Origin: a virus
Lineage: Duplodnaviria > Caudoviricetes
Virus record (IMG/VR): IMGVR_UViG_3300021254_000027
Span: 32,001 to 96,000 of that record
DNA: 64,000 bases
Direction: 5' to 3' (one strand)
The translations under genes were made by a program, and so were the position numbers. Each line of letters starts with the position of its first letter. The first letter of the stretch is position 1. Shown piece after piece: positions 16,190 through 62,706 of the stretch. The notes under the pieces are model-generated. The model had not been told where the DNA came from. It worked only from the letters and a program-made list of their open reading frames with translations, and made no database searches.

Positions 16190-16194
16190 TGCAC

Positions 16195-16527
16195 TCACTC
16201 CGTTTCATATATAAAATCAATAATAATATAAGCATTTTGGTTATTGCCTATTGTTTCAAGAGAACCATTATCAAACATGATACTGGTAATATTGGCAAGA
16301 CCTTCAACACTTAATTCATAAATACCAGTAGCGCCTACTACAATAGGAGTTTCACTAGCATTTAAATAAAATTTGGTTCCTGGTAAAGTCTACACACCAA
16401 GTTGTACAATGGGATATGTGCGCGGAAAGGCTGTGCCATTCCGCAACATATCCAAAGTCAAGGTGGCAGGATAATTGTTTTTTACGCCAGGACCAAACCA
16501 ACGAATTTGACCAACTTGCTTCGCCAT
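16195..16527 (-). CDS. Small structural protein (110 aa), missed by the ORF track
   Basis: GGAGG RBS, ATG 16527, MAKQVGQIRW..QLGV(TAG)TLPGTKFYLN..VGATGIYEL..IIIDFIYETE-TGA. Confidence 0.7.
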
Positions 16528-16541
16528 TATCCTTTTCCTCC

Positions 16542-26500: not shown

Positions 26501-29500
26501 TACTAAAAATCTAATTACTTATTCCCGGATCACCTAGATATATTATACCAGAAGAATTTTTCTATGTCAAGCCAAAATCTCCAATATGCCAAGGTGAAGT
26601 TGAACCAATTGTGCCTGCGCGAGCAGTTAAATATCCTTGCCAATTAACGCTAAATAAAGGTTTAGTATTCGGTGAATATCCAGCAAAAATAGCATATTTA
26701 TTAGCATCATTCAAAATAACTTCATTAATTCGTTTATCTTTTATCTAATCTAAAGAATTAGCAAGATCATCATATAAACTATTACAATCTTTTATATCTT
26801 GATTATATTTAGCATCTAATTGCTTTTTCTTTACATAATACTCATCATAATTACTATTTTCTTTTAACCAAAGAGCACCTGCGGCAAGCATTTCATCATA
26901 CTGTCTGGTATAACCATCTAAATGATAATTATAATACGCTCGTGCCCATTGAGAAAAATCTGTTAACCAAGCAACAGACAAACACTCATCATGACTAGTA
27001 TCTAAAACGGTATGCAGATATGAAGGAGCTCCAAAAGCTTGCCACTATGCCATCCAAGTTTCATTAGAATCTTTCCCGCCATCTGACGAACCATAATATG
27101 TATTAGCAATATAAGTACATTCTTCGCTAAATAAAAATGGCTGTGTATTAAATGATTCAATACGCATTCCCTTTCCAGAAGTATTATATTCTTGATGTAC
27201 ATGAAGTGTTGTTTTATCAGCGCTCTAAACATCTACGTAATAATAAATCCGCGTGCTATTATCATTGCCATAAGAATCTGACCATAAAGCATTAATTACA
27301 TAACGACAAGCAGTTTGAGCACCGCCTATATATGCGAGACTAGGCTACCCATTTCGCCAATGAAAATGCGTACCAGTTCGCTCTTCTTTTGAGAAATACT
27401 CAATTAATAAAGATTCTAATAATTCTTTAGATACCATATCTCCATCAGTTTTAGATATCGCTTCATTAATAGCTAAAGATACGTTATCTGCCCAAGCAGC
27501 TTGCATATAATAATGTTCAGGATCATACTAAAAAATATGCGTATAATATGATCCTATAAGATTACGTAATTTTTGTAAATAATTTAAATATAAAAGGGTT
27601 AAATCCCGTTCACGTTCTCTATCTAATATGCTTTTTTTAATATTAATTTCTGTATTTAACTATGTTAATTCACTTAGATCATTTGTAGAATACCCTAAAT
27701 ACATGTAACGACTATCTAATAAAGTATCACCAGTATGTTTTTGATATAATCCTTGATTGCTAATCATCCAATTACCAATTTTACCATATCGAGCAATAAT
27801 TCCACCAGAAGTCAATACTCCATTATTGGGGTCAACAATAAAATAATCTTTGGTTTCATCATTTAAAAATTTATTTGCCCAAGCTGTTGATAACTCTAAA
27901 CTATCTACTCCCTCTAATGGAGCCTAAGAGCTTTTTTTAGCTTCTGCATATAAAAAATATTGTGAATAGCCTAAATGATTTGTTAAATCAATAGAACCAT
28001 CAGAAGAAATATTATATGTAATTGGATCTAAATTAATATACGCGGTTTTATCAACATTACTAATTAATGATTGATTACCATTAAATACAATTTGTCCCCG
28101 TCCAGATTTACCAATAAATCCAGTGCCATTTGTACGGAATCCAAATACTTGTCCGCCTTTTTCTAATCCATATATTCCAGGAATATCAAGAGATGCATCA
28201 CCATAATCAGACCAGTTACCCATAACTACGCCAGTAAAAGCATTATTATTATCTTTCGCTCCGGCGCTAATCATTTGCGCAAGAACCGCATTTTGAGCCT
28301 CATCTATAGTTAATTTACCATCCCAAGAATTAAGTAATGATGAACTATAAAGATTGCGGCTAAATGGTATAGCCTATTTAAATGTAACACCATTTTCTGT
28401 CCATTTCAAAATGGTATAATAATATTTCATATTATCGTCCCAATACCAAGGACTATCATTAGTAGTATTGTGCTTATATGGATCTAATGAATATTCAATA
28501 TGTCCAGGCAAATAATTTGCTGCCGCTTTACTTAAATCAATAAAACGAGAATCTCTTAAGTTCGCTGCAGCAGCTCTAATACTATCTAAATCACCGACTA
28601 TATCTTGCTCTAAAATATTAGCAATAGTAGCGTTATATTCATTTTGAATCATTTGTTCTAATTCTACATAGGTAGAAGAACTGCTTCCAGAAAATGGGTT
28701 TTTATTAAAAATCCAAGTTTCACTTCCATCTTCTGCGGCTTCTTTTGCATAATAAAGTAAATAATTATTATTCGTTGTAATCGCTTGTGAAAAGATTGGA
28801 GTTTCTTTTAAAGCTAAATAATCTGGCGTGGTTAATTGATTCCACGTACCAGCATTGTTTTTATACTAAATTAACTCCCAAGTTGGATATACATCTACAA
28901 AATTTTGTCCAACAGTTTGAGTTACTGAAAAAGTACCAATATTACTTAACGGCACTGATCCATCTGATTTAAACTCTACACGATTTGGACAGCTAACACT
29001 ATATTCCGCCGCTGCATCCGCGTCTGAGATTATTTTAAATCCTGCGACATTAGATAATATATAATCTGCTGCGCCTAAAACAGTTACCTTAAAAACTGGC
29101 GGCATATCATTGCGTAAATAACCAGTGATTTTATTACCAATAAAGAACGATCCATTTCCAATTGTCCAATTCTATTTATTATTACCTTCTTCATCTTGGA
29201 GTTCTTCTTCAGCGCTCTCAGTAATAATAGTTGGAGAAAGACATTCCCAAGAAAAAATATATTTACTGTTCTAAGATTCTTCCGCAGTTTTTCCTTTTTC
29301 TACAACATTCGCTACAATAGAAAATTTTTGATTCTAAACTAAAAATTCTCCTTCTGGTGCGAGTTGAGCAAATACAATAGTATATTGACTACCCATACTA
29401 CCAGCTTGTCCAAAATGTAACTCAATTTGTGGATGATAAGTTTTACCTTTACGAGTTACAATCGCACCAATTGTATTATTTAAATAAGCTAAATCTAAAT

Positions 29501-32108
29501 AGCTTTTAATCTTAAATTTACGAGTAATCGCACGAATACGATCATTATATAGAGAACTAGCTCCTTCTAAAATAGGCGCTAATACGCTATTTGATAATTC
29601 GGCATCGGTAGGGACTGCCCACTAATCAATCATACTTAATGATGTAGGTGGTTGCCAATTAACTTCTACTCCATTATCATCTGGATCATAAGTCATTGGA
29701 GAATAATTGCCAGTATCATTATTACGAATCCAAACCTACACATAATACCAATAATCATTATATCTTACATTGTCTTTATCTTTAAGAACATAATTATTTT
29801 CATCATAAACATAAAAATCTCGTAAGCTATTATCTTCTACTATATTAGTAATACCATTTTCATCAGTTTGTGCCCGCAATAATCTAAATGTAATTTCATT
29901 TAAACTATCAAGACTGCTAGTTTCAATAGAAGAATCTACATTAGTAAAAATAAGAGGCTCGGTTTCATATGGCACATCATTTACAGTTACTATTGCTTTC
30001 CATTGTTCGCGTGCGCGAGAAGCATTAGGAGTTACTCTATAAGTATCAAAATCTTCTCCAGTAGTAGACTCTAAATATTTCCAATTTAATCCGCCTTGTC
30101 TCTCAGCTAAGACGCTAGTATCTTGCAAACATCCATACTCATAATGATACCATTGAAGCTTAGCTCCTACAGCATCTTCCCAATATTCAAAAGAAGATAA
30201 ATCGTTATCATTTTTCTTTGCATAATGAGTAATTAAAATTGCTCCAGCATCAGTTAAATGTACCCAAGCAAATTTTAAAGTTTTTTCAGTTAATAACCAT
30301 TCATATCCAGGCTGTTCCGCATATTTATTTGTTATTTCTTTTATTTTTGCACTTTTTTCTACTGTATTTAAAGTCGAATCATTCTAAATGCTTAATATAG
30401 CTTCTTGATAAGTGCTATATTCTTGGGTATAAGTCAAAGCATCTGTACCGTATTTAATATCATCATAAGTATATAAAAATACTCGATCAGTAGTGCATTC
30501 ATCTGTTGTTAATCCCAATAGTGCAGATAAATTACTTACTTGAATATTAGATGGAATATTTTCATAAGGTATTTTCTATCCATAGACGTCCCAAAAATCA
30601 TGGTCTTGCCAAAAGAAAACTCTAATTGATTCAAGAGTAAGCATATTAGAAATATCAAAAATCTTCTATTGAATTGTAGGCTCATAAAATCCATAAGTAT
30701 TACCATACATATCTTCATTAGTAAAATAAAGAGTCTGAATTGTAGATACAGATTTTTCTTCTTCAGTTGGACGAGTTTTCCCTTTTAACTCAATACGTAA
30801 TCCATATCTTCCTCGCGCAGGACGATATTTTGACAATAAGGTTTTAAAATTTGCCGAAATCCCTAATTTAGTTTCAGCTAATGGGATAGTAGGATTTTCA
30901 TTATCCCACTTCCATAAAAAATTTTTATTGTCTACATCTAAACTAGTCGCCTCATAATAATCATTGATTGATTGATTATATGCGGCGACAGTAGAAGAAT
31001 ATGCTTTGTTAATTGGATCAGTATATTTATCATATACAGATTGTTCATAAGTTTTTAATAAATTATATTCTTCTTCAGTCCAATAATAATCAGTATCAAT
31101 ATGAGCATCTTCTAAATACTAATCAAACATATTTTCAAATTCGATGCTCGTCGTATCTGCATTATTTAAAACTTGCCCCAAAGCATTTGTGTATAAAAAG
31201 TCTATTAAAGAAGTAAAAGCCTTTTCATAATTTGTTGGTTCTGATTCTGTGCCATCAAGAGAATTGTACTATAACTAAAGTTCATTAATTCTTTTATTAT
31301 GCTATTCAATCAATTGATCTATCTGAGCCTTACGTTCTTCAGTCGTTAAAGATGTATCTTGAGCAATATCCTATAAAGAATTACGATATTGTTTTTCGGC
31401 ATCTAAAATATTTTCTTCTAACTCTTTAACTTTTGCTACAGTTAAATACATTGCACTCTACTCAGGGCTATAAAAGTTTTTTGTCGTCCAAGAAGTAGTC
31501 ACATCATTTAAATGAGAAGATGCAATGTAAACTCCTCCATATCGATTATAATGAGATTCAATTGAACCCTATAGTCTTTGATGATATCTATTATACACAC
31601 TTAAAATATTCTAATATGTTGAAATTAATGAATCATCATATAGATTTTTTAAAGAATCTAACTAATTTATATAATCTTGTTCATTTTCAGTCTTACATCC
31701 ATGTTCTGGTTTATTGGCCAAATAACCTTTTGATGTAAAAGTCGAATCGTGTGTTAAATCTTCTAAGCCGACAAATCTATCAAAAGGCATTTTGAAATTA
31801 AAATTGTAAGTTGCTGCTTCGGTGCCAGCATCTACTTTTCTGCCAATTATATATTTTTGTTTAGTAAAATCTCCCATTGGAACCATTACGTAAACGACTT
31901 CGTTTTCATAATAAGTTGCAGTATCTTGAGTATACGCATCAAATTTACCATTTTCATACTCTACTTTATAAATACCTTCACTCTTCCGAGCAGTAGAAAT
32001 TACCTTTGCTTCAATAGTTTGGTCATACTTATATTTTTTAACAATGTTCTCTGATACAATACTAATTGCATCAAGTAGATTATTAGTATTAATTGCCAAA
32101 CTACTCAC
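23586..32108 (-). CDS. Giant central tail spike/hub protein (~2,840 aa)
   Basis: GTG 32108 with AAGGAG RBS; fragments 30128, 29105, 28652, 28274, 26981, 26438, 25007 and 24494 all in frame; TAA at 23586. OB-fold-like N-terminus (TIEAKVI..GIYKVEY..VYVMVPMGD), repeated G-x-I-G-x-W-x-I beta motifs, LGTTTRRW spike motif; lies directly after the tape measure. Confidence 0.75.
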
Positions 32109-32121
32109 TCCTTTTTCTCTA

Positions 32122-32170
32122 CTCTAAAAAATTTTCAAAAATCCACCCAATAAATTAATAATTACTACCC
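32122..32170 (-). promoter_or_regulatory. Copy 3 of conserved intergenic motif (candidate late promoter)
   Basis: GGGTAGTAATTA TTAA TTTATTGGGTGG ATTTTTGA AAATTTTTT AGAG, between the tape-measure terminator and the RBS of the next gene. Confidence 0.5.
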
Positions 32171-32176
32171 ATAAAT

Positions 32177-32211
32177 AAAAAAATAGGGCGAGCATTGCTC
32201 GCCCTATTTTT
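32177..32211. terminator. Terminator after the tape measure gene (potentially bidirectional)
   Basis: aaaatagggcgagc-att-gctcgccctatttt inverted repeat with A/T runs on both sides. Confidence 0.8.
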
Positions 32212-35200
32212 ATCGTCTCCAAGCATACTAAGTTGCTTGGTTAATTAGATCATTAAATGCCATTTCAATTTCATTATGATCAGTGACATTCGGGAATTCA
32301 GCAGAGATTGAAACATTCTATTCTAGCTCTTGTGGTTGCATATGAACGGTTCTAACAGAAGCGAGACTACCAAGTCCATATAACATACCAAGTGCATTAT
32401 CCATTACCGCGGATTGTAATAAATCAAATACACTAGAATCAATAGAACGAACAAATTGAACCGCGCTTAAAATCTTAGAAGTATCATCTGCATTTAACAT
32501 TAATTCTGGACTACTAGAACTACCATCTACCCAAGCTGGACCAGTATAATCTACTAAACCACCTGATAAATAAGTAGGAATATTATTAGTATAAATTGTA
32601 TTATAGGCTGCTTTTGCTGCATCTTTAACCGCTTTCTATTCTGCGGCACTCATTTCATCAGTAATAAGATTTTGAAATTGTGCGTCAATATCAGTCATAG
32701 CTCCACTTAAAGCGGCTGCTTTAGTATGATAGCCATCACTCATACCACTTAAAATAGCTCCATTATAATTATATTGCCATCCATAAGACCAATTTTTATT
32801 TTTTGCAATAGCACCGCCACCGCCTCCCTAAATAGCGGTATCTATCATTGTATCTGTGCCCGCTACTTGTTTAATCGCACCTGCAGCAGCATTAGCCAAT
32901 TCTTCATACTCTTCAATAAGGGCATTAAGAATTTCTGCATGTGCAACCCAAGCATCAGTAGTGTCATTTATATTATATAAGGTTTCTTGTAATGTATTAT
33001 TAATTTCTGTCATACCATCTTGAGCGTGCGCGACAGCTTCATCATAATCATCAATAGAAGCGGTCATATCTTCCCAATTTAATCCACTTTCAGAAGAAAT
33101 ATTATTTAAATCTTCTGAATAGGCATGTAATGCTTCATAAATTGAACCGCCAGGCTTCATTTGCTCTTCTAAATATGTCGCATAATCAGACAATCCAGAT
33201 CCCATCATTAATTGACGTACTGATTCATTAAGCTAATCTTGCAGTTTGTTAGCATTATCATATATAGAAGTTCCATATCTCTATTGTACATATTGCTAGT
33301 TAGTTAATAAAGCATTAGTAGCATTTACATATTGTTCTTGTAAGAATTGCATTGTTTCATTATGCTGTCTAGTTAATTCTTCCATTTTCTATTGACGCTC
33401 TTCAATAGTTAAAGTGGTATCTTGAGCAATACTTTGTAAATTGTCTCTATAATCTTGTTCTACTTCTAATACTTTTTGCTCCAATTCAGAAGTACGATTC
33501 GCCGCAAGTTCATTAATCTATTGTAACATATCATCAACTTGTTGCCGTGCTTTATTAACATCATCTTCATTTGCCGTATACTGATAACCAAAATTACCAT
33601 TTTCGTCGCGTGTTAATCGAACTGTAGATTTTGCATTTTGTGCTTCTTCTAATGCCTATAAAGCAAGAGCGTGTTTATATTGAAGCTCCATCATTTGTAC
33701 ATCATATTCTGTTAATTGATTCTTTTCTGCCATCGCATTAATTTCTTGCTGCAATGCTCTTAAGCGTTCTTTACTACGCTTTGTTGTTGAATCAGCAATA
33801 CTATCTTCAATATCACGATTTAATTTAGCTATATCATGTAATTCTTTAGCTGTTGATAAATACCAAGACTATTGCTCTTGATAATAAGCGTATTCATCTT
33901 GTAAACTAGACCAAGAATCCTTTAATCCGCTAATAGCCTCATCAAATGCTTCAACCGCTGCAGCAACAGCATTTTCAAATAGAGCTTGCGCATCAGTTAA
34001 GGCATTATTTGTATATTTAACTAATTGATCCTCTTGATCTCTAATATGCTCACTTAATTCATCCCACTATGTCTATAAAATTTTAGGAACCTCATTTTCT
34101 GCATAAACTGACATTTGCACACGTAAAATACGTTCTTGCTCTTTTAAAGTGTTAAGATATTCATGCGCAGAAGAAACATTAGCATTACTATAACGCAACT
34201 ATGCTTCATACATTGTCGTTAACTCACGATAATTTTGTCCTCGTCCCATAAGCTGTTGCATTTCAATATAATTTGCAATCATATCTCGTGCATGACCTAA
34301 TGTATCAATATGTTTTTGCATTTCTTCATCAGCTTTATCTAAAGTTTCACCATAAGTTTCTTCAATTTGTTTCTATAATTCATTAAGATTTTTAAGCTAT
34401 TCTAAAATTTTGGAATTTACTTCATTCATGCCTGTTGCATATTCATTGTCCTATAAAGTACCATCCGCTCTAAGATGAATAAGCTCTTGGTATTCTTCAT
34501 TAAGTGCGGCTAAATTATCTTCATATAATAGACTTTGATTAGTTAAAGATACCATAATATCATCTTGTCGCGCCAAAAAATCTTGCCATTTATTTTGGAA
34601 ATACTCTAATAATTTTATATCTCGTTCATTAATTTCTGCACGAATTTGAACTTTATACTGAATCCCTTCTAATGCAGTCTATGAAATTTTGTTTTCATTT
34701 TCTAGAATATCATTTTGAATAGTGTCTATTAAATCTAAATCTTCTTCGTAATTTTTAAGCAATTCTTCTGCGTCTTCTTTTGCTTTTTTGGCGGCATCTA
34801 ATGCTAATTGATCTTTTGCTGACTAACTTGACTAATTAAATTTATCCACTGCTGCATTATACTGACGAATAATACGATCCATATATTCACTATAATTTAC
34901 AGTACCATCGTCATTAAGTATTTCATTACCAAATTGTGAAATAATCTAATTTTTATTAATACTAAAATTAGTCCGAGCTTGATTTAAATATTCTGCTTGT
35001 AATGCGTTTTCTTTTTGTAGCGCTTTAATTTCTGCATTAATATTTTTAAGATGCTATGCGCCATAAGCACGACTTTTTAATTTGTCAATACGAGCTAATA
35101 AATTACTCTATTTTTCTAATTGATCACGAATCTCATGATAACGTTCTTTTTTTGGAACTTCATATTTTTCGATTTTCTTTTTGCCACCTCCGCCGCCACC

Positions 35201-46498: not shown

Positions 46499-46526
46499 AA
46501 AAAAAATAAGCGCATTAAGCGCTTAT
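46499..46526 (-). terminator. Terminator-like hairpin between the chaperone and tape measure genes
   Basis: ataagcgc/gcgcttat stem followed by a T-run on the minus strand. Confidence 0.5.
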
Positions 46527-47047
46527 CCTAATTTTTCTACAACATCAGAAATTAATGAATTTGTTTCCAATTTACGTAGATCATCTAACATTTCATCTAC
46601 TTCTTTTGTATCAGCAATTTGATTAGTTTGTAAATATTCTAACAATCCAGCAGCAGAAGTTCTATAATTCACTAATACAGCTATTGTTTGATGCATTAAA
46701 GTGAATATTTGATTCCACTCTTCCTTCGGGATTATTTCTTTTACTTTATCATTTATTCCATTTATCTATAAAATATCATAAGTTTTAACTGCATTGTTAA
46801 TCATTGTCTCAGTGATATTAATATTCGTATAATATTTTATAATATAAATCATTCCATATAATTCTTCACGAATTGGTGAAGTGGTACCATTTTCTGCAAG
46901 TACATCACCAATATAATCATTTAATAATGCTGCTTTCTATTCCATAGGTAAATACTGTAATACCTAAATGGTCTAATCACCAATCTGTACATTAATCGGC
47001 ACAATAGATTTAACAGTATTTATTTTACTTAAAGCGATTTTCGCCAT
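46523..47047 (-). CDS. Probable tail assembly chaperone (174 aa), missed by the ORF track
   Basis: AAGGAG RBS, ATG 47047 (MAKIALSKINTVK..D*TI*VLQYLPME*K..), TAA at 46523; lies immediately upstream of the tape measure. Confidence 0.65.
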
Positions 47048-47084: not shown

Positions 47085-47113
47085 ATTATATAGAAAAAAA
47101 ATAACCTTGTCAA
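47085..47113 (-). promoter_or_regulatory. Consensus sigma-70/sigma-A promoter
   Basis: TTGACA (47113-47108), 17-nt spacer, TATAAT (47090-47085); the -10 box lies within a perfect 24-bp palindrome at 47073-47096. Confidence 0.8.
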
Positions 47114-48255: not shown

Positions 48256-48294
48256 AAAAAAATAGGGGAGATACGATTTCGTATCTCCCCTATT
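48256..48294 (-). terminator. Rho-independent terminator after the major tail gene
   Basis: aataggggagatacg/cgtatctcccctatt stem with T-run on the minus strand. Confidence 0.8.
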
Positions 48295-48310: not shown

Positions 48311-49426
48311 TTAAATACTCTCGGTAAAACGACCAGGAGCCTGCTTACCAGAGTCTTCATAAATTGTACCAGGAATGACTTCACCAGCAACAGTAGCAGC
48401 AGCGCCACCATCATAAAGGTTAACATCTTCAACAATCTGAAGTGCAGCAATTACCTTCTTGGTCTTATCAAACTTAGTATAATCTGGGAATGCATCCATA
48501 GTAAAGGTGAAGGTAGAAGGATCACCAGTAGGAGCCATTGTAAATGTGAAGTTAGACTGAATCTTGCAGTTTGGAATTACAAACTCAGCAGGATAATCTT
48601 CGCCAGTACCCTGATCACGGAACAAGGTAGAAGCCTCAAGATAGTAAGATCCACCAAATTTACCAGCTTCAATATCAATCTGCTTTACATATTGAGTACT
48701 CTTTACATAGTAATCAACATACATAATAGAGCCAGGATTATCTGGATCAGTACCATCAACATAGTCAACAATTTCCTCTGCAGATGCAGCATTCTTATAC
48801 TTATCAAGTTCAGACTGGAACTGAGTAGCTACAGGAGCAGTAGCATTCATGATCTTGCCTGCATTAATAAGTTCAGTGTGACTCTCATTATAATTGTCAC
48901 GCCATGCAGAGAAAGCATCAGCCAAAGTAATGGTCGCGCCACTCATATAGGCAGGATCAGCACCATCAGAACCTTGAAGTGGGATATCCATAGGAACACG
49001 ATTAGTATTAATAGAACCATCATCATTCTTTAACATGATATACAAAGAACCAGCCTTCGCAGGAACATGAGAAAGAGTTAACTGACCATTCTTAACCTGG
49101 ACTTCTTCAGTAGTATGAATAAAAATTGGATGATCTTCATCAGCATCCATAAATCCAGCACCAGAAAGAATAGAGAAGCTTTCTGGAGAAATCAAAGCAT
49201 CTTCCATTGTAAAGGTAACAGTACGGTCACCTTCCCAAGCAACCAAACGAGGGTTACCGCGTCCACCCTGAGCATAAACAGTGGTACTCTGGCCTTCAAG
49301 AGATGAAGTCTTCAAAGTATCAAAATACATAACAGGCATATCCTTATCGAGATAAAGCTTGCCGAAATAACCGCCAGTCTTTCTCTTAAGAACGACGTCG
49401 CAAATTTCGCGTACACCAAATTTCAT
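48311..49426 (-). CDS. Major tail tube protein (371 aa)
   Basis: Intact TAG-free ORF; AQGGRGNPRL..W..DRTVTFTMEDAL and IPNCKIQSNFTFTMAPTGDPSTFTFTMDA motifs; position, strong RBS and downstream terminator. Confidence 0.75.
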   Translation of the reverse strand: MKFGVREICDVVLKRKTGGYFGKLYLDKDMPVMYFDTLKTSSLEGQSTTVYAQGGRGNPRLVAWEGDRTVTFTMEDALISPESFSILSGAGFMDADEDHPIFIHTTEEVQVKNGQLTLSHVPAKAGSLYIMLKNDDGSINTNRVPMDIPLQGSDGADPAYMSGATITLADAFSAWRDNYNESHTELINAGKIMNATAPVATQFQSELDKYKNAASAEEIVDYVDGTDPDNPGSIMYVDYYVKSTQYVKQIDIEAGKFGGSYYLEASTLFRDQGTGEDYPAEFVIPNCKIQSNFTFTMAPTGDPSTFTFTMDAFPDYTKFDKTKKVIAALQIVEDVNLYDGGAAATVAGEVIPGTIYEDSGKQAPGRFTESI

Positions 49427-49444
49427 AGGTTATTTCCTCCTTAT

Positions 49445-50203
49445 TTAATGTAAGTCTTTCATCCAATCGTCTGGTTTATCATCGGGCTTACCACCTGCCA
49501 GACGAGATCGAATATCTAAATCCCACCCAATATATAAGCCATATCTTTCAACTAAATCATATAACTAATATACTGTTAAATTTAAACAATCATCTAAGCT
49601 CATAGATGATAGCCCGACAGTGAGAATAGAAACATAGCGTCCAAGGACTCCATCTGCGGAATGTCCTTTTTCAGCTGCTGCACGGGCTCGCCCGCGCATA
49701 AGTTTTGCCGCAATCGCGGCAGCTTTTTGTCCCTTCGGATTATAGTTTGAATTCTATCCACCAGTACTGTTATTTACTCCTGTGATGTCATTAAGAGCAC
49801 TCTTAAATACATCAAAGTTTGTATCATTTATCATAACATTATGTTTCGTGGCTGGATTATTCAAATATAATCCCATACCATTGGGTAAAAGCTAGATCCC
49901 ATATCCAGGAAACAAAATGGTCAAAGTAGAAATCATATTATTCTGCACTTTTAATTTTGCTTCCTCTTCCGGAGGATTCATCAATGTCATAAATATCTGA
50001 AAATCACTCATAGCAGATAAACTAGATGCGCCCTTGGGATTAGAAGCTAAAATAGTCGCTTTATTAAAACATAAAGTCTATAATGCAGAAAAGTATTCTA
50101 ATTCACCCATATAAGAAATTTCACGAATTTTAGGCTGGTGCAAAGTAAGCTATAAATCAGGAATGGGAATATCTACTCCAGTTAATAATGATAATTTATT
50201 CAT
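49445..50203 (-). CDS. Neck/tail-region hypothetical protein (252 aa), missed by the ORF track
   Basis: ATG 50203 overlaps the upstream TAA; MNKLSLLTGVDIPIPDL*LTLHQPKIREISYMGE..PDDWMKDLH-TAA. Confidence 0.7.
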
Positions 50204-50736
50204 TATTTTCTAGGAATTATATCATCAGAACCATGAACTGCTTCATACGCCATTGTTAAACCAATGAGCTATTCATTCATAACAATATTGTCAGCACCAG
50301 CAAAATGCAATTCACCAATTCCAGTAAATTTTTGATTTTGAAGTGAAGCATCAATTTCTCCTGCAATACGATATGGTCGTAAAGCAAAATTTCCTAAATG
50401 CCAATGATCTGGATGGCATAAAATATGAAAATAAATATAATTATCTCTAAATTCTGGATTATTAGCATTTGGTTTAAAATCTCTAAAACTAATACAAATA
50501 TAAATAGGACATTCTGTAGAAATATCAATTTCAGGAATAATCCTAATCTATTTATCAATTAAAGACAACAACTATTCAGAAGTTAATTTTGGCTTCTATA
50601 AACAATCTCTTTCATGATAATATAATAATTTTACCAATCTATCATTTTTTAATAATTTTTTAATAATAATTTCTAAATCCTTTTCTACGGAATAAAAACT
50701 ACTATCTGGCTTAGTAAAATTTTCTCCTACCTTCAT
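50203..50736 (-). CDS. Putative tail terminator/completion protein (177 aa), missed by the ORF track
   Basis: ATG 50736 with AGGTGG RBS; RLVKLLYY..FHILCHPDHW..LRPYRIAGEID..GIGELHF; assigned from position. Confidence 0.6.
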
Positions 50737-50748
50737 ATTTTCACCACC

Positions 50749-51702
50749 TTAAAATAAAGATTCAACCAATATTGTTTTAGATAGATCACCGCAATGGATA
50801 ATAAAAGACCCACTAATCATACTGGTCCAAGTAATCTTTAATCGATTGCCAACAATCGTATATTCTAAAACATCGTCGATTTCTTTATTTTTATCAGCAG
50901 GTAAAGAAATTGACCAATTCATTTCAGTATCATTCATTTTTAATCTATAATAAACAGATTCTAAAGGTTTTATAGATTTTGGTCCGATAATTTCATTAAC
51001 ATCTTCTGGAACAAAATCTTCTATGTCATCTGCTACTTGAATAAACATTTCATCAGCATGACACTCATAATCTTCTTCTACCTAAATATCAAATACTCCA
51101 GGGGTACTAATAAAATCAGGCGCCTAGACTTTCCAATAGCGATCATCAAATTTAAAACGCTTATATCGCTCAAAAGTTCGACGATTCTATTCAGTATCTG
51201 TCATATAAATCTCTAAAGTTAAATTCGGTACATGTGCAACCAATCCATCTTTTTGAATTGTATTAATTTTAGTTTCAACAGGTCCACGAATTGCAGCCCA
51301 TTGACTAAATTCTTCATGAGTTTCAGGATCAATCGCAGTTAAATATTTACATCTACGACAATTAGCTCGTAAATAAGCGAGTTCTGTATCTTCTGGCTTT
51401 AAAATAATCCAATGACTTCCAGTCCCTTTTCCCCATTCAAAAGTATCTCCAGGCTAATATCCATGTTCAAAATCAATGGAAATAATTTTCTCATCATAAT
51501 CAAATTTAACTTTATCAGGATTCATTAAGGCTCTTACCCAAGTTGCATTTTCATCAGTATCTTTTTTCACCCAAGCAGCCTAGTATGAATACAATAATGC
51601 GCGATGCATAGAGCGTAAACGATCCATAATCATGCGGTTATGTTGACGATCATTATCCGCCGCATGAGCGCGCTTTTTCATTAATGCTAAATTCTCAAGC
51701 AT
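50749..51702 (-). CDS. Putative head closure/neck protein (317 aa)
   Basis: ATG 51702 overlaps the upstream stop; in frame with fragment 50749..51048 across TAGs. Confidence 0.6.
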
Positions 51703-51998
51703 TATAATTTATTTACCAATTCTGTCAACATCGAAATAACACTAAAAATAGTAGTTCGATATGACATAAAATTGCGGACATCATACAATCCATTTAATTT
51801 ACTTAATAAAATAAGAAAATCAAGTTGGTCGCCAAACATTGCATGAAGTCCTCGTAATTCTATTAAAACAGAGTCTAACTGCTTTTGCCAATCTTCTTCG
51901 TTTTCTCTCATTGGCAACAACTTCCAAATCTAATTTATCAATCTCCGCAAATCTTTTTCAACCACAGAATTTGCAATATCAATCTCTTGATAAATCAT
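51702..51998 (-). CDS. Small neck-region hypothetical protein (98 aa)
   Basis: ATG 51998; RRLIN*IWKLLPMRE joins track fragment 51702..51920. Confidence 0.65.
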
Positions 51999-52603
51999 GA
52001 TTCTTTATCTCCTATAGGCTCCCAATTTGCGACAACACCATCATCATCTACTTCTCCAGTTCTATTATCAACATAAATAATAGTAGATGGATTAGCAGGA
52101 TTGCTGAAGTTACTCTGTGGTTCAGTATCTACATACTGTTGAGGTACTGCCGACTGATTTAGTACGGACCAATTAGACATTACTCTACCATCATGTCCAT
52201 ATCTGCGACGCTTATATAAACGCTACGCATGAATATTTTCACGATGATTTTCAGTCTTTAAATTTAATAACTTCGCAAGATGATTTGCTTGCGAAGTCAT
52301 TTTAAAATCTGAGCCAGAATATTTCATCCGAGTCATTTCAACTGAGTTAATCTAACGATCTAACCAAGCCTATTTCATTAACAAAGCAAAAATGTTGATC
52401 TCTTCTTTAGTGAGATCAACATTATATACTCCCTATTCAGCATCATAATCATATAATGCGAATCGAGGAAACTCGAAGTAAGGAATGGCATCAAGCAGAT
52501 ACTATTTAGCATCACGGATGGTATCTTCTTCAGTAAGCTCTAAATACATATCATCAGTGATCTTACTCAAGAAGGCATCTATAATAGTATCAAATGATGT
52601 CAT
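51995..52603 (-). CDS. Putative head-tail adaptor (202 aa)
   Basis: ATG 52603 with GAGGAGG RBS; MTSFDTIIDAFLSKITDD..LTKEEINIFALLMK*AWLDR*IN..DFKMTSQANHL; joins fragment 51995..52180. Confidence 0.6.
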
Positions 52604-52605
52604 AA

Positions 52606-53214
52606 TTAACCCTCCTCATTAGAGGTTTTCTTTACAACATTATACTTCGGAGAAGTTCTGCGCCCAGAAGTTTCCTTAGCTGCAGCTGGCTGTACTCGAC
52701 GACCAGTAGGAGTCTCAACTTTCATTCCACTGGATGTTTCTTCTGCAGCAGCAGCTGCTTCTGCTTCAAGTTCAGCCTTATGCTTAAGCGCAAGAGATAT
52801 ATCAAATCCAGTTTTCTCCTTAATCGCACTAATCTTACGAGTATCAGTCACTGGAAGCTCAAGCGCATACTTCTGAACCAAATCAATAACGCCGCCAGGT
52901 GCAAAATCAAGACAGTCTAATAGGGCATCAACTGAGCCATTCTTTAGAAGATCAATAACTCCCTTGTCGTCTAAATAATACTCAGGTTCTACGTGAGATG
53001 TAGTCTCATTCACCGTTTCGGCATCTTCAATAAATAATTCATCGCGCAAAATAGAGAGCCCACCGCTCTTTTGAGCTAGCGCAATCAATTCTGCCGCAGG
53101 CAGCATCTTAGTCTCACCGGGTGCGAATTCTCGGCGTACGCCCAAGTCTGGCACTCTATAGATTACGATGGAATTACTTCTATTGCGAACCTTTACCTTC
53201 TTGTTAGTATCCAT
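52606..53214 (-). CDS. Head-associated hypothetical protein (202 aa)
   Basis: Real start likely ATG 53214 (MDTNKKVKVRNRS) after AAGGAG; TAG-free; directly follows the capsid gene. Confidence 0.7.
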   Translation of the reverse strand: MDTNKKVKVRNRSNSIVIYRVPDLGVRREFAPGETKMLPAAELIALAQKSGGLSILRDELFIEDAETVNETTSHVEPEYYLDDKGVIDLLKNGSVDALLDCLDFAPGGVIDLVQKYALELPVTDTRKISAIKEKTGFDISLALKHKAELEAEAAAAAEETSSGMKVETPTGRRVQPAAAKETSGRRTSPKYNVVKKTSNEEG

Positions 53215-53242
53215 ATTTTTTAAACTCCTTTTTCTCTTACGC

Positions 53243-53266
53243 GCGGGCGCGTATATACGCGCCCGC
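53243..53266. other. Perfect 24-bp GC-rich palindrome 3' of the capsid gene
   Basis: gcgggcgcgtat|atacgcgcccgc; no U-tract on the coding strand. Confidence 0.7.
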
Positions 53267-53280
53267 ACAATTTATATTAA

Positions 53281-53436
53281 TTAAGCTTTAACTACGTAAT
53301 AAGTCTTTCCTTCAACAAGTTCAGAATCAGAGGTCTTTACGTAATTATTATCAACCTTTTCATAGTAAGTTCCAATGTTAGCAACATCAGGATTAGTTAC
53401 AACTTCATACTCAGGCTCAGTTACCGCCGGGCTAGG
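53281..53436 (-). CDS. Predicted +1 frameshift C-terminal extension of the major capsid protein (50 aa)
   Basis: Capsid frame ends TCT CCC TAG; the +1 frame reads CCT AGC CCG.. = PSPAVTEPEYEVVTNPDVANIGTYYEKVDNNYVKTSDSELVEGKTYYVVKA-TAA and has no credible own start or RBS. Confidence 0.7.
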   Translation of the reverse strand, partial: PSPAVTEPEYEVVTNPDVANIGTYYEKVDNNYVKTSDSELVEGKTYYVVKA

Positions 53437-54502
53437 GAGATACCGACTGCTGATCGCCGGTATATACTCCAAACTGACCTTCAAGGTCCTTATTTACATA
53501 GATACAAATGTCAGGAGTCATAACTACACCGACACCGACCTTCTTGTATACCTGGATCTCACGAGAACGGTCCTTGTTAACATATTCATCAACAATAGTA
53601 GAACCTTCCATGACAATCTTAACAGGCTTTACATTTCCAGGAAGAATGTAACAATAGCCAGGATCAATAACCTTAGTAGTATGAGTTGCATCAGTGAATC
53701 CCTGAGGGAGAATGTTAATAATATGGTTACGATAAGATGCGAAACGTCCATTGTTCCACAAAGTATCCTTCATATTATCAGACCAACGTACATAAGTACC
53801 ATTATCAGTTTCAGGAAGAATAGTTGCGGCAAACTCTTCAGTGCAATAGATGGTAGGAGTACCATAAGCAGAAGAGATAGCGAGCAAGCGATCAAAAGCC
53901 TGCTGATCAAAACCATTTACCTTAACAGTATTAAGAGCAGGGAGCTGAGTCAAACCTTCCTTAAGAGCAGCACCGACTTCCCACTGAATGAGCTCTTCGA
54001 TACCCTCCATAACAATCTGAGTAACCTCAGCAAAATCAGCACGTCCATCCAAGAACTCTTCAAGACCAATCTGCGCGGCTCCGCCGATAGCACTGGTCTG
54101 AACTTCGATTGGAGTATCCTTACCAAGCTTAAATACTTCGTAGATACCAGCCAAACCAACCTTGGTAATGAACTGCTTTGCACGCTGACGATCATGCTTA
54201 CGCCAGAACATAGTAGAATTGCCCTGAGCGATGGTCTTTACTTCAGCAAACTTCATATATTCTTCTTCAACCTTCTTAGGAAGAATATCGTCCATAGTCT
54301 CCTCAATGATGGAGAAGATAGTATTCTTATTCTCACGATAAAGTGCGAATGTACCAGCGAGCTCGTTCAATTCCTTACGAAGAGTCTCATTAAGAGCATC
54401 ATAAGACAAATTCTCGCCATTGAATGAGTAAGCAACAGGAGCAGAGCGATCAGCCTTAGCAGTTGCTTTCATTAACTTAACAAGTTCATTTCTTTCCAAC
54501 AT
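53417..54502 (-). CDS. Major capsid protein (356 aa to TAG 53432; 361 aa if TAG is read as Gln, to TGA 53417)
   Basis: Follows the protease/scaffold and accessory head genes; strong AAGGAG RBS, high-expression codon bias, no internal TAG; size fits an HK97-fold capsid. Confidence 0.8.
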
Positions 54503-54523
54503 AGCTTTTCTCTCCTTTCCTTA

Positions 54524-55363
54524 TTACTTTACACGCATTACCTTAACGGCCGGCTGCATGTCACCTAAATTATAAATCTTAACAACCTGCCACTGGAATG
54601 GGGAATTGGTAGCGCCAGTTGCACTCAAATAACCATGAGCATTAGGAGCAAGAACAGAACCTAAAGTCACAGTAGCATCAGCAATAGTATTAGTAGTGAA
54701 AATATCGCCTTCGTGAGTCTTAAATACACGAGGAACCATCAAACCAGCCCTATTGTTAGCATTAAAACCATCAGCACCAGGAGCCTTACCAGTACGGTCA
54801 GGCTGTGCATACTCAGCCATCTGAGGAACATTCAAGCGCTCTACCTCATAGCTATTACCAATAGCATAATGATTACGACCATAATCAGGAGCTACACCAG
54901 CTGCATTATCATGAGCATCTGGATAAATCTCAACCTGAGCCTGAATCTTCTTCATCATATCCCAATCAGCAGAAGTCTGATAACCATTAATACGAACGCC
55001 ATTAGGACCAAAAGCCTGACCAACGCCCATACCAGTAGCCTGAGCACCAACACCAACTGGAGAATAAACACGACCATTATAGTCACGACGAATCATTGCG
55101 AAGTCCTGATCGGTTTCGTGATCACGATAAACCTTAACTTCATTGAAAACAAGCATCCATTCACCGATGCCAGAGAAATTAACTACGCCATTAGCATAGT
55201 CGTACTTTACGAACTGACCATTCTCAAGAATATCAATATCTGCGGCAACAGGCAACTGAGCGTAAATTTCGCCAGTACGCTGAGCACTGAGATGGTTTGG
55301 CTCGACCTGACCGAAGCCATAGGTTACGAATTTAGCTTCGGGAGATAAACGTGTAAAAGCCAT
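54524..55363 (-). CDS. Capsid accessory/decoration-like protein (279 aa)
   Basis: Intact TAG-free ORF between scaffold and capsid; GQVEPNHLSAQRTGEIYAQLP..LENGQFVKYD; high-expression codon style. Confidence 0.65.
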   Translation of the reverse strand: MAFTRLSPEAKFVTYGFGQVEPNHLSAQRTGEIYAQLPVAADIDILENGQFVKYDYANGVVNFSGIGEWMLVFNEVKVYRDHETDQDFAMIRRDYNGRVYSPVGVGAQATGMGVGQAFGPNGVRINGYQTSADWDMMKKIQAQVEIYPDAHDNAAGVAPDYGRNHYAIGNSYEVERLNVPQMAEYAQPDRTGKAPGADGFNANNRAGLMVPRVFKTHEGDIFTTNTIADATVTLGSVLAPNAHGYLSATGATNSPFQWQVVKIYNLGDMQPAVKVMRVK

Positions 55364-55386
55364 ACGTAATTTCCTCCTTTTTTTAA

Positions 55387-56715
55387 TTAGTTCATTTCTT
55401 TGGCGGTCTCACGTACAGCCTTAATCCAGGCAGGAGCCGTGTCGCCATCATCATTGTCGCCCAACTGATATACAAGTGGGTCAGCAGGAGTTTTTTCCTC
55501 TTGCTTGTTATCGTCATCAAGGTTAAATGAGACCTTGTTACGAACACAAATAATAGAAAGCTTTGCTTCAATATCATCAAGTGAATACTTGTCAATATTT
55601 TCAATGCAATCCTTCTTATCTTCATCAGAAAGCATATAGAAGCTATTGATCATATCTTCCTTAGCCTTCTTATCAGAGTCAGCCTTGAACTGACGCAATG
55701 GAGCCACCTCAGCTTCAAGATTTTCGACCTTAGTCTGCAAATCCTTAAACTGTGCGAAAAGAGTCTTATAAAGATCAGAGCTAGCAACTTCTTCATCAGT
55801 TAAAGTGTGCTTTGCAGGAGCCTTCTTCTTCTTTTCGTCTTCGTCCTCTTCATCCTTATCTTCAGAACCGGAATCAGAGTCCTCGCTCTTATCATCATCC
55901 TTCTTAGGTGGGAACGGATTATTTCCACCCTTCTTGTCGTCCTTCTGTTCCTCTTCCTCTTCGTCCTTCTTCTTAAACTCGAGTTCAGGATCAGTTGGCT
56001 CCAAAGCAGGATCGATGACCTTCTTATCATCATTCATGGGATCTAATCCTCCTTTACTTAAAGCAGTTTTAATGTCGTTCATTAATGAGAACAACTAGTT
56101 CTTGAAGTCTCCATCAAAGGAGAATTGTGCTGCTATGCCGGCACCCTCGAAGCAAGGCTCGACATTTTCTCCAAGAATACATAATTTTTGTATCATTGCT
56201 TCATTGATTATAAAAAACTTTGGAAGACCTTTATCATCAAATGTCCAAGCGCCGTCCAAATTCTTTTCATCTAATTCCATAGATTGATTTTTTGGACGTT
56301 CAATAATTTGTTGCGCTTCTTCATAAATACTGGTCCAAAGATAGCCCTCAGTCATTAAATACTCATGCTCAATGCCATCATCCATAAATTTTTGGAACCA
56401 AATCTTAGCTGTTGAATCAACATAGCCATAAGCTTTTGTTTTATCAATAACTTTAAATTTACCATTACCAATTTCAATGCTGCGCTGATGACCTTCAAAG
56501 TCACCTTCGGCTTCGTTATAAAAGCCTACAATAGGGCAACCGGGCAAGCTTGCCGCCATTTTAATCGCAGTTTCCTTAGTAATTATAGAACCGTTACGAT
56601 TTGGTTCGTCACCCACATAACAAACTTTAATCTCGCACTTAGATACAAGTTTATTGAGAGGAGTGACGTTAAGCAATTCAACAGTATTTTCGAGTGGAAT
56701 ACTTATATGAGCCAC
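55387..56715 (-). CDS. Prohead protease-scaffold fusion (442 aa) with nested scaffold start at 56037
   Basis: ORFs 56095..56715 and 55387..56094 are the same frame separated by one TAG. N-terminal NRNGS..GCPIVG..QSMEL..LCILG..VEPCFEGA protease-like domain; acidic/coiled-coil C-terminus; internal AAAGGAGG + ATG at 56037. Confidence 0.75.
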
Positions 56716-58355: not shown

Positions 58356-58712
58356 TTAATATCCAGCTTTTTCCATAATATAGTCATAAGAAATTAAATT
58401 TTCTTCTGTGTAAGGAATTTCAATTAACTTATAACCATTAAGCGCGCAGAAGCGACGCTTTTTATTGTCGTTAAATTGCTATTGATAGAAACCTTTCTTC
58501 CCGCCAAATTTAGCGGAAGGCTCATAATGCTATTTACCCTAATATTCGATTAGAAAATCTATATTACCATCATCATCAAATACACAAAAGTCAAACTTTA
58601 GCGGGCGACCATTCGGACTATTTAATCCTTCGAACGATTGCTCCATTGTAAATCGCATTTCGTTATCGCGCAAGATTTCTTCAATTTTAATTTCTCCTCT
58701 TGAAGCACGCAT
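58356..58712 (-). CDS. Vsr/DUF559-like PD-(D/E)XK endonuclease (118 aa), missed by the ORF track
   Basis: MRASRGEIKIEEIL..LKFDF..LIEY*GK*HY..NDNKKRRFCALNGYKLIEIPY; matches the family pattern IEYQG-x-QHY with both Gln encoded by TAG. Confidence 0.8.
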
Positions 58713-60452: not shown

Positions 60453-61627
60453 TATTCTTCATCCTCTCCTAAGAGTTCTCGAATAGTGGCGGCATCTTCA
60501 TCAGCTTCTTGTTCTACTTGATTATAGTGTTCCAAAAAATCACCATCAGAAAGCACTTCAGATTCAAGCTCTTCCATATCTAAGCCAAGAGAATCAGTAG
60601 TATCTTCATCTTCTTCTTTACTCTCTTCTCGTGCCATGGTACGTACTGCATTTTCAATCAAGTTACCAAGATTCATTTCTTCAGTAACGAGACGATATGT
60701 ATAATTGCGCAAATCGGCAAGAGTCTCATCAGGCTTATCTTTTGGCTCACTTACATAGTAACGAGGAATAAAGCCTTCACGCTCACAGAGAAGAATAAAT
60801 TCATCAATAGCAGAAACATATTCACCAGATTCTGCTTTATTCTAAGCTGCGGTGAATTTCGCAGATTTCATCAAAGTATCATAAACTTTAGAAATCTTTT
60901 GAAAGCCTTCAATATCTCCAAGGTCAATAAGCTAATGTGCCTTAAGTGAAGTCTTACAGATTAATTTCAGATAATCCTCATGCGCGGGAGTTACAATATC
61001 AAAAGCCGCCATCATCTCTTGATATAGCTTTTCTAATTGAACCCATTCATAAGGACGATACGCCTTACCCCATTTGATAGTAAGGTATTTCTTATCTTCA
61101 TCAGTAAGATCATCATCAAAAAACTCTGGTTCATTTAAATCAATGGGTGCCGTAGTCTCTTCAGTTTCTACAGGCTCTAGCGCAGGACGATCGGGCATAC
61201 TACCTTCCGCAATCGCTTTTTCAATCTCTTCACCAGTGTATCCCTATCTCGCCATTGTTTCAGCTTTATGCGCATCCGCTTCAGCTTTAAGCCGTTCAGT
61301 ATCATCCCAACCATAATCACGATACTGCTTTAACTTCATTTTAGACAAATAGCGGCCCAAGATTGTCATACCAGTAAGTTTTTTCTTATTTTGTCCATAT
61401 CTATTGAGAAGAGTGGTCCATTCATCTTCAATATATGGAACATCAATTTCTTCAAGAATCCAAGTATAAGTTTTCGGATCCCAGTTATCAACATGTCGAG
61501 TTAAACACTTTTTACATTCGGGCATCTTACCATCAGGAGGATACCTATCTATTCGTTTAGAAGTATAAAACTCATCTGCGTCCATTGTTCGTTTACAAGT
61601 TTTGCAATAACAAGTTGTATCAGCCAT
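60452..61627 (-). CDS. Zn-finger protein upstream of terL, possible small terminase (391 aa)
   Basis: Fragments 61627, 61198 and 60712 in frame across TAGs; CKTC..CKKC N-terminus, acidic tail; TAATG overlap with terL start. Confidence 0.65.
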
Positions 61628-62706
61628 TATTTAGCCTCCTTCTTACGACCTTTGGCATTGCGGCATTTCTTACATATGCTATAGAAGCCATCTTTTGATG
61701 TCTTGTTGACTGAGAAGAACCTAGTATGAGCTAACTTAATTTCTCCGCAGCGCGAACATCTCTTCCATTTTCCCTTCTCTTGATATGTAAAGTACCACAT
61801 TAGAAACTCGTCTTGCGCCTTTTGCGCAATGAGTTTCGGAATCTTATTTCGCCAAAGACTACTAATATATTCTATAGAGTGTGTAAAAGCGAACTCCTTC
61901 TACAATAAAGCCTAAATTTCTGTATTAGGAATTCTTTCCATTTTGTACTCTACGATGCGTTTATACATAGGGTATTCGGCAAGTGCCCTATCCATTAATG
62001 CCCCAAAATCTAAACAACAATACCAAGAATCACCAAGAAAATTTCCTTGGCTACGATTTTTCATAGCTAGATATACTTGCATTAATTCACTACATACTTT
62101 TGCATCACAAAAGGATAGTCCAGAATACTTAATCGTTGCGTTGCCTTGATTATCATATTCAATCCACTCATCCCACAAGAGCGGCATTGAATAAGGACCA
62201 CTTCTTGTTAATCTTGTAAAAATAATAGGACGACGATAAGAATTCTTAATAACATATTGATCTTTGCGCATTTCGATTAGAGTGCGTTTAATTATAAACG
62301 CTTCTCGTCCGGAGGCTTGTTTTAACAGTTCTTCCCAGCGTTCTATGCTTTCGCGCAACTGTCTTAATGGCGGAATTTCTTCAATATCTTTTTTAGTAAT
62401 AGTAACTTTAGGTTGAAATATAATGTTTTTACCGTTTTCCGCAATTAAATTATAAATACCATCTTCGCCATTTTCTAGCTAGCCTACCAGACCCTCGTAA
62501 GAAGTTTCTCGCTTATTAATCGTAGCCATACGATTATCAGTAAGAATCTTTCTCTCCTTTTTCTCTTGCTTCTCCATACAAAGCACTAGATAGTCACCGA
62601 GAATTTCAAGATACTACTCGCTTGGGTCGGGAGTTTCTTCTAAAATTAAATTTACTAACTTTAAGCGCTCTTCGGGAGAATCGATTGTATAATCTAATTT
62701 AATTAT
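61627..62706 (-). CDS. Putative DNA-binding regulator (359 aa) with sigma region-4-like HTH and C-terminal Zn finger; non-canonical ATA start
   Basis: AGGAGG RBS then ATA ATT AAA TTA GAT; four in-frame TAGs; RIVEYKMERIPNTEI*ALL*KEF..ISSLWRNKIP HTH-like segment; CSRC..CKKC. Confidence 0.6.

Follow-up and report, generated by a model that had tools for sequence, protein, structure and literature searches.

Avoidance of the reassigned codon TAG in the bulk virion genes of a TAG-recoded phage is probably due to translational selection

The window analysed here is a stretch of 64,000 nucleotides, bases 32001-96000 of a single 105.5-kb contig from a large gut phage (IMG/VR record IMGVR_UViG_3300021254_000027, Caudoviricetes), which is itself a genome fragment. 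It carries late genes for head and tail proteins in which the stop codon TAG is read as glutamine. Most of these late genes bear internal TAG codons, while the genes for the bulk virion proteins (capsid, capsid accessory protein, scaffold and tail tube) avoid them. Our analyses indicate that TAG is probably absent from the bulk virion genes through translational selection against a reassigned codon, and not as a means of setting the dose or the timing of the other proteins.

Under the standard code the minus-strand genes of the window appear as fragments, and reading TAG as glutamine turns them into long, tightly packed open reading frames (ORFs); the portal, large terminase (TerL) and tape measure genes, together with others, are whole only in this reading. 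In standard-code relatives, the residue opposite a TAG of this phage is glutamine in 38% of cases, which is 11 times the background, and tyrosine, leucine and serine showed no enrichment at these positions. Thus, the fraction TAG/(TAG+CAA+CAG) is justified as a statistic, and glutamine codons are counted below as TAG/CAA/CAG with TAG taken as glutamine. The AAG index, AAG/(AAA+AAG), serves as an index of codon bias from codons other than those of glutamine. The early genes are readable in the standard code.

TAG avoidance belongs to a general codon preference

A high-copy class was fixed beforehand and comprises the tail tube, major capsid, accessory and scaffold genes. The genes compared are as follows, in coordinates of the window.

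48311-49426, minus strand: major tail tube gene, 371 aa; 0/2/11; AAG index 0.91
53432-54502, minus strand: major capsid protein of the YonB/SPbeta type, 356 aa; internal codons 0/0/15; AAG index 0.96
54524-55363, minus strand: capsid accessory protein, probably decoration, 279 aa; 0/0/15; AAG index 0.90
55387-56715, minus strand: full scaffold-gene ORF, 442 aa; one internal TAG at 56095-56097
52606-53268, minus strand: head-module protein, 220 aa; 0/1/2; AAG index 0.76
23175-23561, minus strand: tail-region protein, 128 aa, PHROG 1401 (no function given); 0/3/6; AAG index 0.80; G + C content at third codon positions (GC3) 0.37
49445-50203, 50203-50736, 50749-51702, 51702-51998 and 51995-52603, minus strand: five interleaved neck/connector genes with unoptimised codon usage; 20 TAG among 39 glutamine codons
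56721-58352, minus strand: portal gene, PHROG 2739 (E 4e-85); 5 TAG among 18 glutamine codons
58722-60452, minus strand: TerL gene; 6 TAG among 19 glutamine codons
32210-46477, minus strand: tape measure gene, 4755 aa, PHROG tape-measure families (E down to 1e-51); 119/184/13
23586-32222: gene with 43 TAG codons
62856-63455, plus strand: gene with no TAG

The original prediction had listed genes devoid of internal TAG, and its list was borne out for the tail tube (0/13), capsid (0/15) and accessory (0/15) genes, for 52606-53268 (0/3) and 23175-23561 (0/9), and for the plus-strand gene. The neck, tape measure, portal and terminase genes bear TAG, as it had also reported (20/39 in the neck genes; 119, 5 and 6 TAG codons in the others). 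With three and nine glutamine codons, respectively, 52606-53268 and 23175-23561 tell little when taken singly. Across the class fixed beforehand, a single TAG was found among 57 glutamine codons, compared with 320 among 997 in the other late genes (Fisher test, p = 2e-8), and the avoidance of TAG thus follows the expected high copy number.

TAG is not the only codon that is avoided in these genes. Compared with the others, the TAG-free genes show raised fractions of AAG (0.72 vs 0.21), CAG (0.70 vs 0.08), CTT (0.41 vs 0.17) and TTC (0.45 vs 0.16), and GCT, ACT, TCT and CGT are raised as well, such that the codons of Lys, Gln, Leu, Phe, Ala, Thr, Ser, Arg and Gly shift jointly. CAA is avoided too, with none at all in the capsid and accessory genes. 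The exclusion of TAG is therefore part of a general preference for optimal codons, in which the glutamine codons are ordered CAG > CAA > TAG.

Base composition differs between the two groups of genes: the G + C content is 0.40-0.45 in the TAG-free genes and approximately 0.32 elsewhere, and GC3 alone correlates with the TAG fraction (rho -0.50; p = 2e-9 in a generalized linear model, GLM). In a binomial GLM containing both variables, the AAG index explained the TAG fraction given GC3 (p = 4e-5), while GC3 had no effect given the index (p = 0.55). Hence the per-gene comparison after GC3 control that had been proposed with the original prediction left the pattern unexplained by composition. A model with GC3 only, fitted on the other late genes, expected approximately 22 TAG codons in the seven TAG-poor genes, where 1 was observed. 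Leucine provides a first-position control: TTG:CTG was 40:1 in the optimised genes but TAG:CAG was 1:73, and in the other genes the two ratios were 242:12 and 320:75. The regression and the leucine control together argue that TAG avoidance is not an effect of base composition.

A codon switch at an internal start within one ORF

The scaffold gene contains both kinds of codon usage. The 442-aa product of ORF 55387-56715 is covered by PHROG 3313 over residues 17-409, and TAG use and codon bias change within it exactly at a conserved internal Shine-Dalgarno sequence and ATG (56037). The parts of the ORF are as follows.

56038-56715, minus strand: N-terminal 226 codons, in the full-length product only; 1/6/1; AAG index 0.32
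56048-56055, minus strand: internal Shine-Dalgarno sequence AAAGGAGG, 10 nt upstream of the ATG at 56037
55387-56037, minus strand: predicted nested scaffold-like C-terminal product from the internal ATG, 216 aa; 0/1/5; AAG index 0.94; GC3 0.44

Each of the 24 sequences examined contains AAAGGAGG, or GAAGGAGG in three relatives, followed within a few bases by ATG (by GTG in the relative L037). All TAG codons of the orthologues in the relatives fall in the N-terminal part, and pooling of the recoded relatives gave 22/78/17 for the N-terminal part and 0/23/50 for the C-terminal part (Fisher test, p = 1e-5, over lineages that are not independent). The TAG at 56095-56097 aligns with glutamine in relatives, and the alignment of the standard-code relatives runs unbroken across it.

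The conserved Shine-Dalgarno sequence and ATG imply a nested C-terminal scaffold product, predicted from the genes. The original prediction had placed a TAG-free scaffold from position 56037; its statement holds for the part that begins there but fails for the whole 442-aa ORF, and a scaffold starting at 56037 is a sensible and plausible reading of the abundant product. The N-terminal part may be a prohead protease. It has two invariant residues, H76 and S145; comparison with Pfam and PDB sequences gave no match, to a known protease or otherwise.

In phage lambda, an in-frame internal start yields an abundant C-terminal scaffold (Nu3) within a longer and rarer product (C). ORF 55387-56715 resembles this arrangement in its conserved in-frame internal ribosome-binding site and start codon; it differs in that its N-terminal domain has no detectable protease match and in that the two products are here predicted from the genes alone. 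As the codon switch coincides with an internal start inside one ORF, the signal tracks the ribosomes that cross a stretch, and not the gene, the transcript or the history of the gene. This switch thus represents a clean natural control for selection that follows the number of ribosomes.

Conservation in related phages

A total of 43 related loci were fetched, and conserved glutamine columns were pooled over 13-15 recoded relatives, giving the following codons (TAG/CAA/CAG).

Capsid gene: 1/11/90
Accessory gene: 1/16/97
Tail tube gene: 1/7/54
Portal gene: 50/81/36
TerL gene: 42/93/24

In the neck genes, the conserved glutamine columns of the relatives swap TAG, CAA and CAG freely, and the orthologues of 52606-53268 contain from zero to two TAG codons. 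Differences at four-fold sites amount to 39-44% in the capsid, accessory and tail tube genes, a turnover that would have offered ample opportunity for neutral changes from CAG to TAG. The same pattern is found in the distant phage phAss-1, with 0/0/15 in the capsid gene and 0/2/12 in the tail tube gene.

The bias of the capsid class is not tied to recoding. In L039, L022 and L025, which use the standard code or are barely recoded, the bias of this class to CAG and AAG is already present, and in L030, L033 and L038, which prefer CAA and AAA, it runs the opposite way. A bias that is kept in orthologues and follows the preferred codons of each lineage is the mark of translational selection. In addition, internal TAG codons occur at conserved positions in the tail tube gene of L009, in the capsid gene of L042, and in the capsid (three), tail tube and accessory genes of L037, which indicates that readability in two codes is not required and that the constraint is soft. 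L037 is AT-rich, heavily recoded and weakly optimised, and prefers CAA and AAA; TAG makes up 5 of 32 glutamine codons in its capsid, tail tube and accessory genes, compared with 85 of 212. L025 is only lightly recoded, with 11 TAG among 197 glutamine codons in its non-abundant late genes, and these two relatives would be useful points for tracing the spread of recoding.

Out of frame, TAG trinucleotides were below the expectation from shuffled codon order in every gene tested of the recoded relatives (orthologues in L001-L042; z -2.9 to -7.4), and the depletion was weaker in the standard-code relatives (z -0.2 to -2.9). Off-frame depletion in the capsid and tail tube genes was considered as a composition signal and rejected, as TerL and all genes tested show the same (z -3 to -7).

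Proposed explanation

The codon statistics, their persistence among relatives and the change within a single ORF are observations; from them we infer a per-codon cost of TAG, competition with release factor 1 (RF1) and the expression levels of the genes. TAG would function as a glutamine codon but be the least favoured of the three; by analogy with the complete relatives, one tRNA(CUA) encoded by the phage would read it, presumably against the release factor of the host. Strong translational selection would act on the most-translated frames, which encode the capsid protein, the tail tube protein, the accessory or decoration protein and the scaffold that begins at the internal start; in these frames an optimal set of codons (CAG, AAG, CTT, TTC, GCT, among others) would be maintained, and TAG and most CAA would be lost. 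The other late genes may lie near mutation-drift equilibrium under AT pressure, with CAG decaying to CAA and TAG, and TAG would then persist because its own G-to-A change creates the stop codon TAA. A small cost per codon would be enough to purge TAG from the most-translated genes and would leave little for the setting of dose.

The remaining late genes agree with this account of mutation and drift. Their ratio of TAG:CAA:CAG matches the prediction from AT mutation pressure, in which CAG changes to CAA or TAG and TAG is blocked from becoming TAA, and CAG is depleted in them more than AAG or GAG. TAG and CAG are followed by similar bases, and CAA by different ones, which fits an origin of TAG from CAG; judged from the base after TAG, no read-through signal was seen.

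Several points weigh against translational selection as the whole explanation. The relatives are not independent samples, and the pooled p-values are thus overstated. The functional class chosen beforehand still adds marginally after the AAG index (p = 0.07), and a small TAG-specific effect beyond general optimisation is possible. One unoptimised late gene (16085-17080 of the genome) is also TAG-free, with none among its 10 glutamine codons. The high-copy label follows from assignments to folds and families, which are weak for the accessory protein and for 52606-53268, and the co-transcription of TAG-free genes with their TAG-bearing neighbours is suggested by gene spacing only.

Dose, timing and other explanations

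The original prediction had regarded TAG as a device for stoichiometry and timing. In this explanation, TAG density is an evolved throttle: the suppressor tRNA is limiting, TAG-rich genes are expressed late and at low yield, the bulk subunits can be made under either code, and assembly awaits the switch of the code. The high-copy genes are indeed readable in both codes, with the capsid gene ending at a TAG that has a TGA nearby, and regulation of genes by recoded codons has been proposed by Borges et al. (bioRxiv 10.1101/2021.08.26.457843). The early plus-strand genes are nearly free of TAG without codon optimisation (2/92/65; AAG index 0.35), and thus code timing shapes TAG use elsewhere in the genome. 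Moreover, the yield of a giant protein must drop with its number of TAG codons.

A device for stoichiometry predicts a gradation among genes, and none was found. The 34 late genes outside the optimised set have a common TAG fraction of approximately 0.33 (chi-square p = 0.14), and the relation of TAG fraction to expression proxies in the non-optimised late genes is weak or absent; a single fraction in these genes points to two classes of genes and not to a scale of dose. The density of TAG in the low-copy genes needs no adaptive account either, since TAG:CAG is 4.3:1 in the non-optimised genes, below the leucine ratio TTG:CTG of 20:1, so that TAG density in these genes lies at or below the neutral expectation. 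In addition, TAG positions are spread evenly along genes (Kolmogorov-Smirnov p = 0.19), with no concentration at 5' ends.

A strongly limiting suppressor tRNA is incompatible with the 4755-aa tape measure protein and its 119 TAG codons, because a yield of 10% demands, by calculation, a decoding of at least about 98% per TAG. At approximately 98% decoding, five TAG codons would cost the portal only about 5-10%, and a tape measure gene that needs near-complete decoding thus leaves little room to set the yield of genes with three to six TAG codons. As for timing, the TAG-free genes lie between TAG-bearing genes of the same strand, either overlapping them or separated from them by 5-23 nt, and both the portal and the full-length product of 55387-56715 need suppression; since the portal, with five TAG codons, is needed for productive head assembly, suppression is needed in any case. 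The supposed two-code readability of the bulk subunits conflicts with the internal TAG codons in the capsid, tail tube and accessory genes of L009, L042 and L037. We therefore regard the throttle as improbable.

TAG might instead be a tuned kinetic element. The capsid gene ends in TCT CCC TAG (53432-53434, minus strand); this TAG, the terminator, is the only one of the gene, and a backup TGA follows five codons on. Three-frame translations revealed a continuation behind it:

53281-53431, minus strand: +1-frame continuation after the capsid stop, approximately 50 aa

This segment is homologous to an in-frame C-terminal extension of the capsid protein in L002, L008, L009 and L018, and the extension is lacking in L001, L005, L006, L010 and L042. 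The region 53281-53434 may contain a programmed +1 shift at a TAG that is decoded slowly; alternatively, it may reflect a recent frameshift or an error of assembly. In the reading of TAG as a tuned element, the codon would be kept out of high-flux frames but deliberately positioned where the capsid gene ends, and there it would split the ribosomes among termination, a read-through of five residues and a +1 shift into the domain of approximately 50 aa, while a high load of TAG would throttle the giant tail proteins. We consider this combination doubtful at best; if it were true, the supply of suppressor tRNA would set the ratios of virion proteins.

A time lag, in which TAG has yet to build up in slow and conserved genes since the code changed, might be suggested by the lower four-fold divergence of the capsid gene (0.39) compared with the neck genes (approximately 0.6). 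TerL, however, equals or exceeds the capsid protein in conservation (86-92% identity to near relatives) and yet has 6-10 TAG codons, with 42 of the 159 codons in its conserved glutamine columns being TAG. As the four-fold turnover of 39-44% provided many chances for a change of CAG, and as gene age does not explain a codon switch inside ORF 55387-56715, a time lag appears very unlikely.

Local base composition alone, by which a higher G + C content would lower TAG use, is hardly credible in spite of the correlation with GC3 described above: TAG and CAG share their third base, TTG prevails over CTG in the same genes, and 49445-50203, 58356-58712 and 61627-62586, with overlapping GC3, bear TAG. 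A recent import of the TAG-free genes from a standard-code phage would fit their distinct G + C content and codon usage but is hardly credible either, since they lie in at least four separate places with synteny kept in all relatives, since capsid and accessory identities track portal and TerL identities across loci (Spearman 0.88-0.93), and since the switch inside one ORF sits at an internal start and not at a recombination joint.

Comparison with known systems

Translational selection against a reassigned codon is a known principle. Three points are new here: it is demonstrated in phages of the phAss-1-related clade, it is set against a neutral baseline in numbers, and codon use changes within a single ORF. 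Lucks et al. (2008; PMC2266997) found that, compared with other genes of phages, those for head and tail lean to preferred codons. Here, too, a bias across many codon families is seen in the genes for capsid, accessory protein, scaffold and tail tube; in contrast to the phages of that study, the disfavoured codons include a reassigned stop, and what the host prefers is deduced from intragenomic bias together with the tRNAs that related phages encode. In Blastocrithidia (PMC12153298) and the ciliate PL0344 (PMC10553269), reassigned stops are under-used in highly expressed genes, which was read as a translational burden. Those systems are cellular and have altered release factors, whereas here TAG is read as sense by a virus whose host probably keeps to the standard code.

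Among phages, Borges et al. (bioRxiv 10.1101/2021.08.26.457843) reported that the TAG-enriched families are lysis genes and a crAss tail tubular gene and that integrases avoid TAG; capsid genes and expression-linked avoidance are not mentioned in this preprint. The phage studied here resembles theirs in using code 15 and in having TAG-free early and TAG-bearing late genes, and the same statistic of TAG against CAA and CAG was applied. The split between early and late genes that such a regulatory gate involves is thus present; gene-by-gene tuning of TAG within the late class was not found. A study of an amber-recoded Crassvirales genus from Egypt (bioRxiv 10.64898/2026.08.21.746148) described a capsid gene without alternative codon usage, and its authors pointed to codon adaptation. 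That case concerns one gene in an unrelated podovirus lineage; in contrast to the present analysis, it involved neither a comparison of relatives nor a control for composition, and the capsid gene was the only high-copy gene considered. Yutin et al. mentioned one capsid gene without stop codons. For phAss-1, of the proposed Phassvirus group, Babkin et al. (2023; PMC10607447) described TAG recoding, a tRNA(CUA) and TAG codons in TerL and the tape measure gene, with no comment on TAG-free capsid or tail tube genes; these were found in its sequence in our analysis, and the window belongs to a different lineage.

These results suggest a rule for the annotation of code-15 phages: in the standard code, the ORFs of the most abundant virion proteins remain whole while those around them break up, and an island without TAG need not point to a second code, to the transfer of a module or to a switch. 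They also set a limit on the idea of recoding as gene regulation, as TAG in the late class of this clade would be a slightly costly synonymous codon at mutation-selection balance.

Gene assignments

The functions of the high-copy genes were assigned from folds and families. For the tail tube protein (PHROG 2729, virion structural protein), an AlphaFold2 model was built from a 21-sequence alignment with a predicted local distance difference test score (pLDDT) of 68, and its top Foldseek matches in PDB are all tail tube proteins, including 8xkn_B, 9jgh, 9jgi and 6xgr of YSD1, with E values down to 4e-10; a PDB sequence search with the same alignment gave no match. For the capsid protein, 30 of 30 matches in the ESM Atlas belong to PF27364 YonB capsid clusters (score 0.99), and tblastn matched the capsid regions of phAss-1, Enterococcus EF1/VRE9 and SPbeta-like phages; a PDB sequence search found no match. 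The accessory gene lies directly upstream of the capsid gene. The AlphaFold2 model of its product is weak (pLDDT 55), as are the best Foldseek matches (E 0.07-0.5), which are chains of capsid outer-shell or decoration proteins of phages BB1, FCWL1 and T1; the product of 54524-55363 is probably a decoration protein. Pfam searches returned nothing for most head genes, and the GenBank annotation of phAss-1, made with the standard code, labels all of its products as hypothetical proteins without functions.

One TAG-free and CAG-rich late gene was missing from the list of the original prediction; it encodes a 665-aa protein with a weak match to a Hoc-like Ig domain. This gene and a hairpin next to the tail tube gene are the following.

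3-1136, minus strand: 3' part, within the window, of the 665-aa late gene (whole gene 31139-33136 of the genome); 0/7/18; AAG index 0.52
48261-48294, minus strand: strong terminator-like hairpin directly 3' of the tail tube gene, with a 15-bp stem followed by a T run

tRNAs and nearest relatives

A tRNA search of the 105.5-kb contig, which is a fragment, found none, including no tRNA(CUA). Two fragmentary relatives of similar size (98 and 116 kb) were estimated by CheckV to be 57-66% complete. The complete relatives are 169-193 kb in length with 34-71 tRNAs, and G003, G004 and G005 each encode one tRNA(CUA); the tRNA set of the complete relatives also has tRNA-Gln(CUG), tRNA-Gln(UUG) and tRNA-Lys(CUU). 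The presence of tRNA-Gln(CUG) and tRNA-Lys(CUU), like the capsid and tail tube identities, lends indirect support to the view that the biased genes would be highly expressed and suited to abundant tRNAs. The nearest described relatives of the phage are phAss-1 (capsid protein 51% and portal 38% identical) and large siphoviruses of Enterococcus, Lactococcus and Bacillus.

The tRNA(CUA) genes lie at L051:13-102, L053:1887-1976 and L054:1901-1990 (in G004, G003 and G005, respectively). They are approximately 90 nt long with a long variable arm, an architecture like that of Leu, Ser or Tyr tRNAs, yet TAG is read as glutamine; ARAGORN labels them Pyl. Weak matches to YrlA (Y RNA-like), below threshold, were observed in the tRNA arrays of the relatives, and the one at L051:124-230 adjoins the tRNA(CUA).

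Other observations

Between the portal and TerL genes lies a gene like those of HNH homing endonucleases (58356-58712, minus strand) with three TAG codons. The late block is headed by 61627-62586 (minus strand), also with three TAG codons, which may be labelled a sigma factor from its match to PHROG 5767 alone; searches of Pfam and PDB gave no confirmation of this label. If it were a late sigma factor, late transcription itself would depend on suppression. Beyond the end of the window, at 96500-105500 of the genome, the G + C content is 0.45-0.55, compared with approximately 0.33 in the late block, and mainly CAG is used. Perfect matches to TTGACA-N16/17-TATAAT occur at 47085-47113 (minus strand), upstream of 46523-47047, and at 51701-51728 (minus strand), upstream of 50749-51702.

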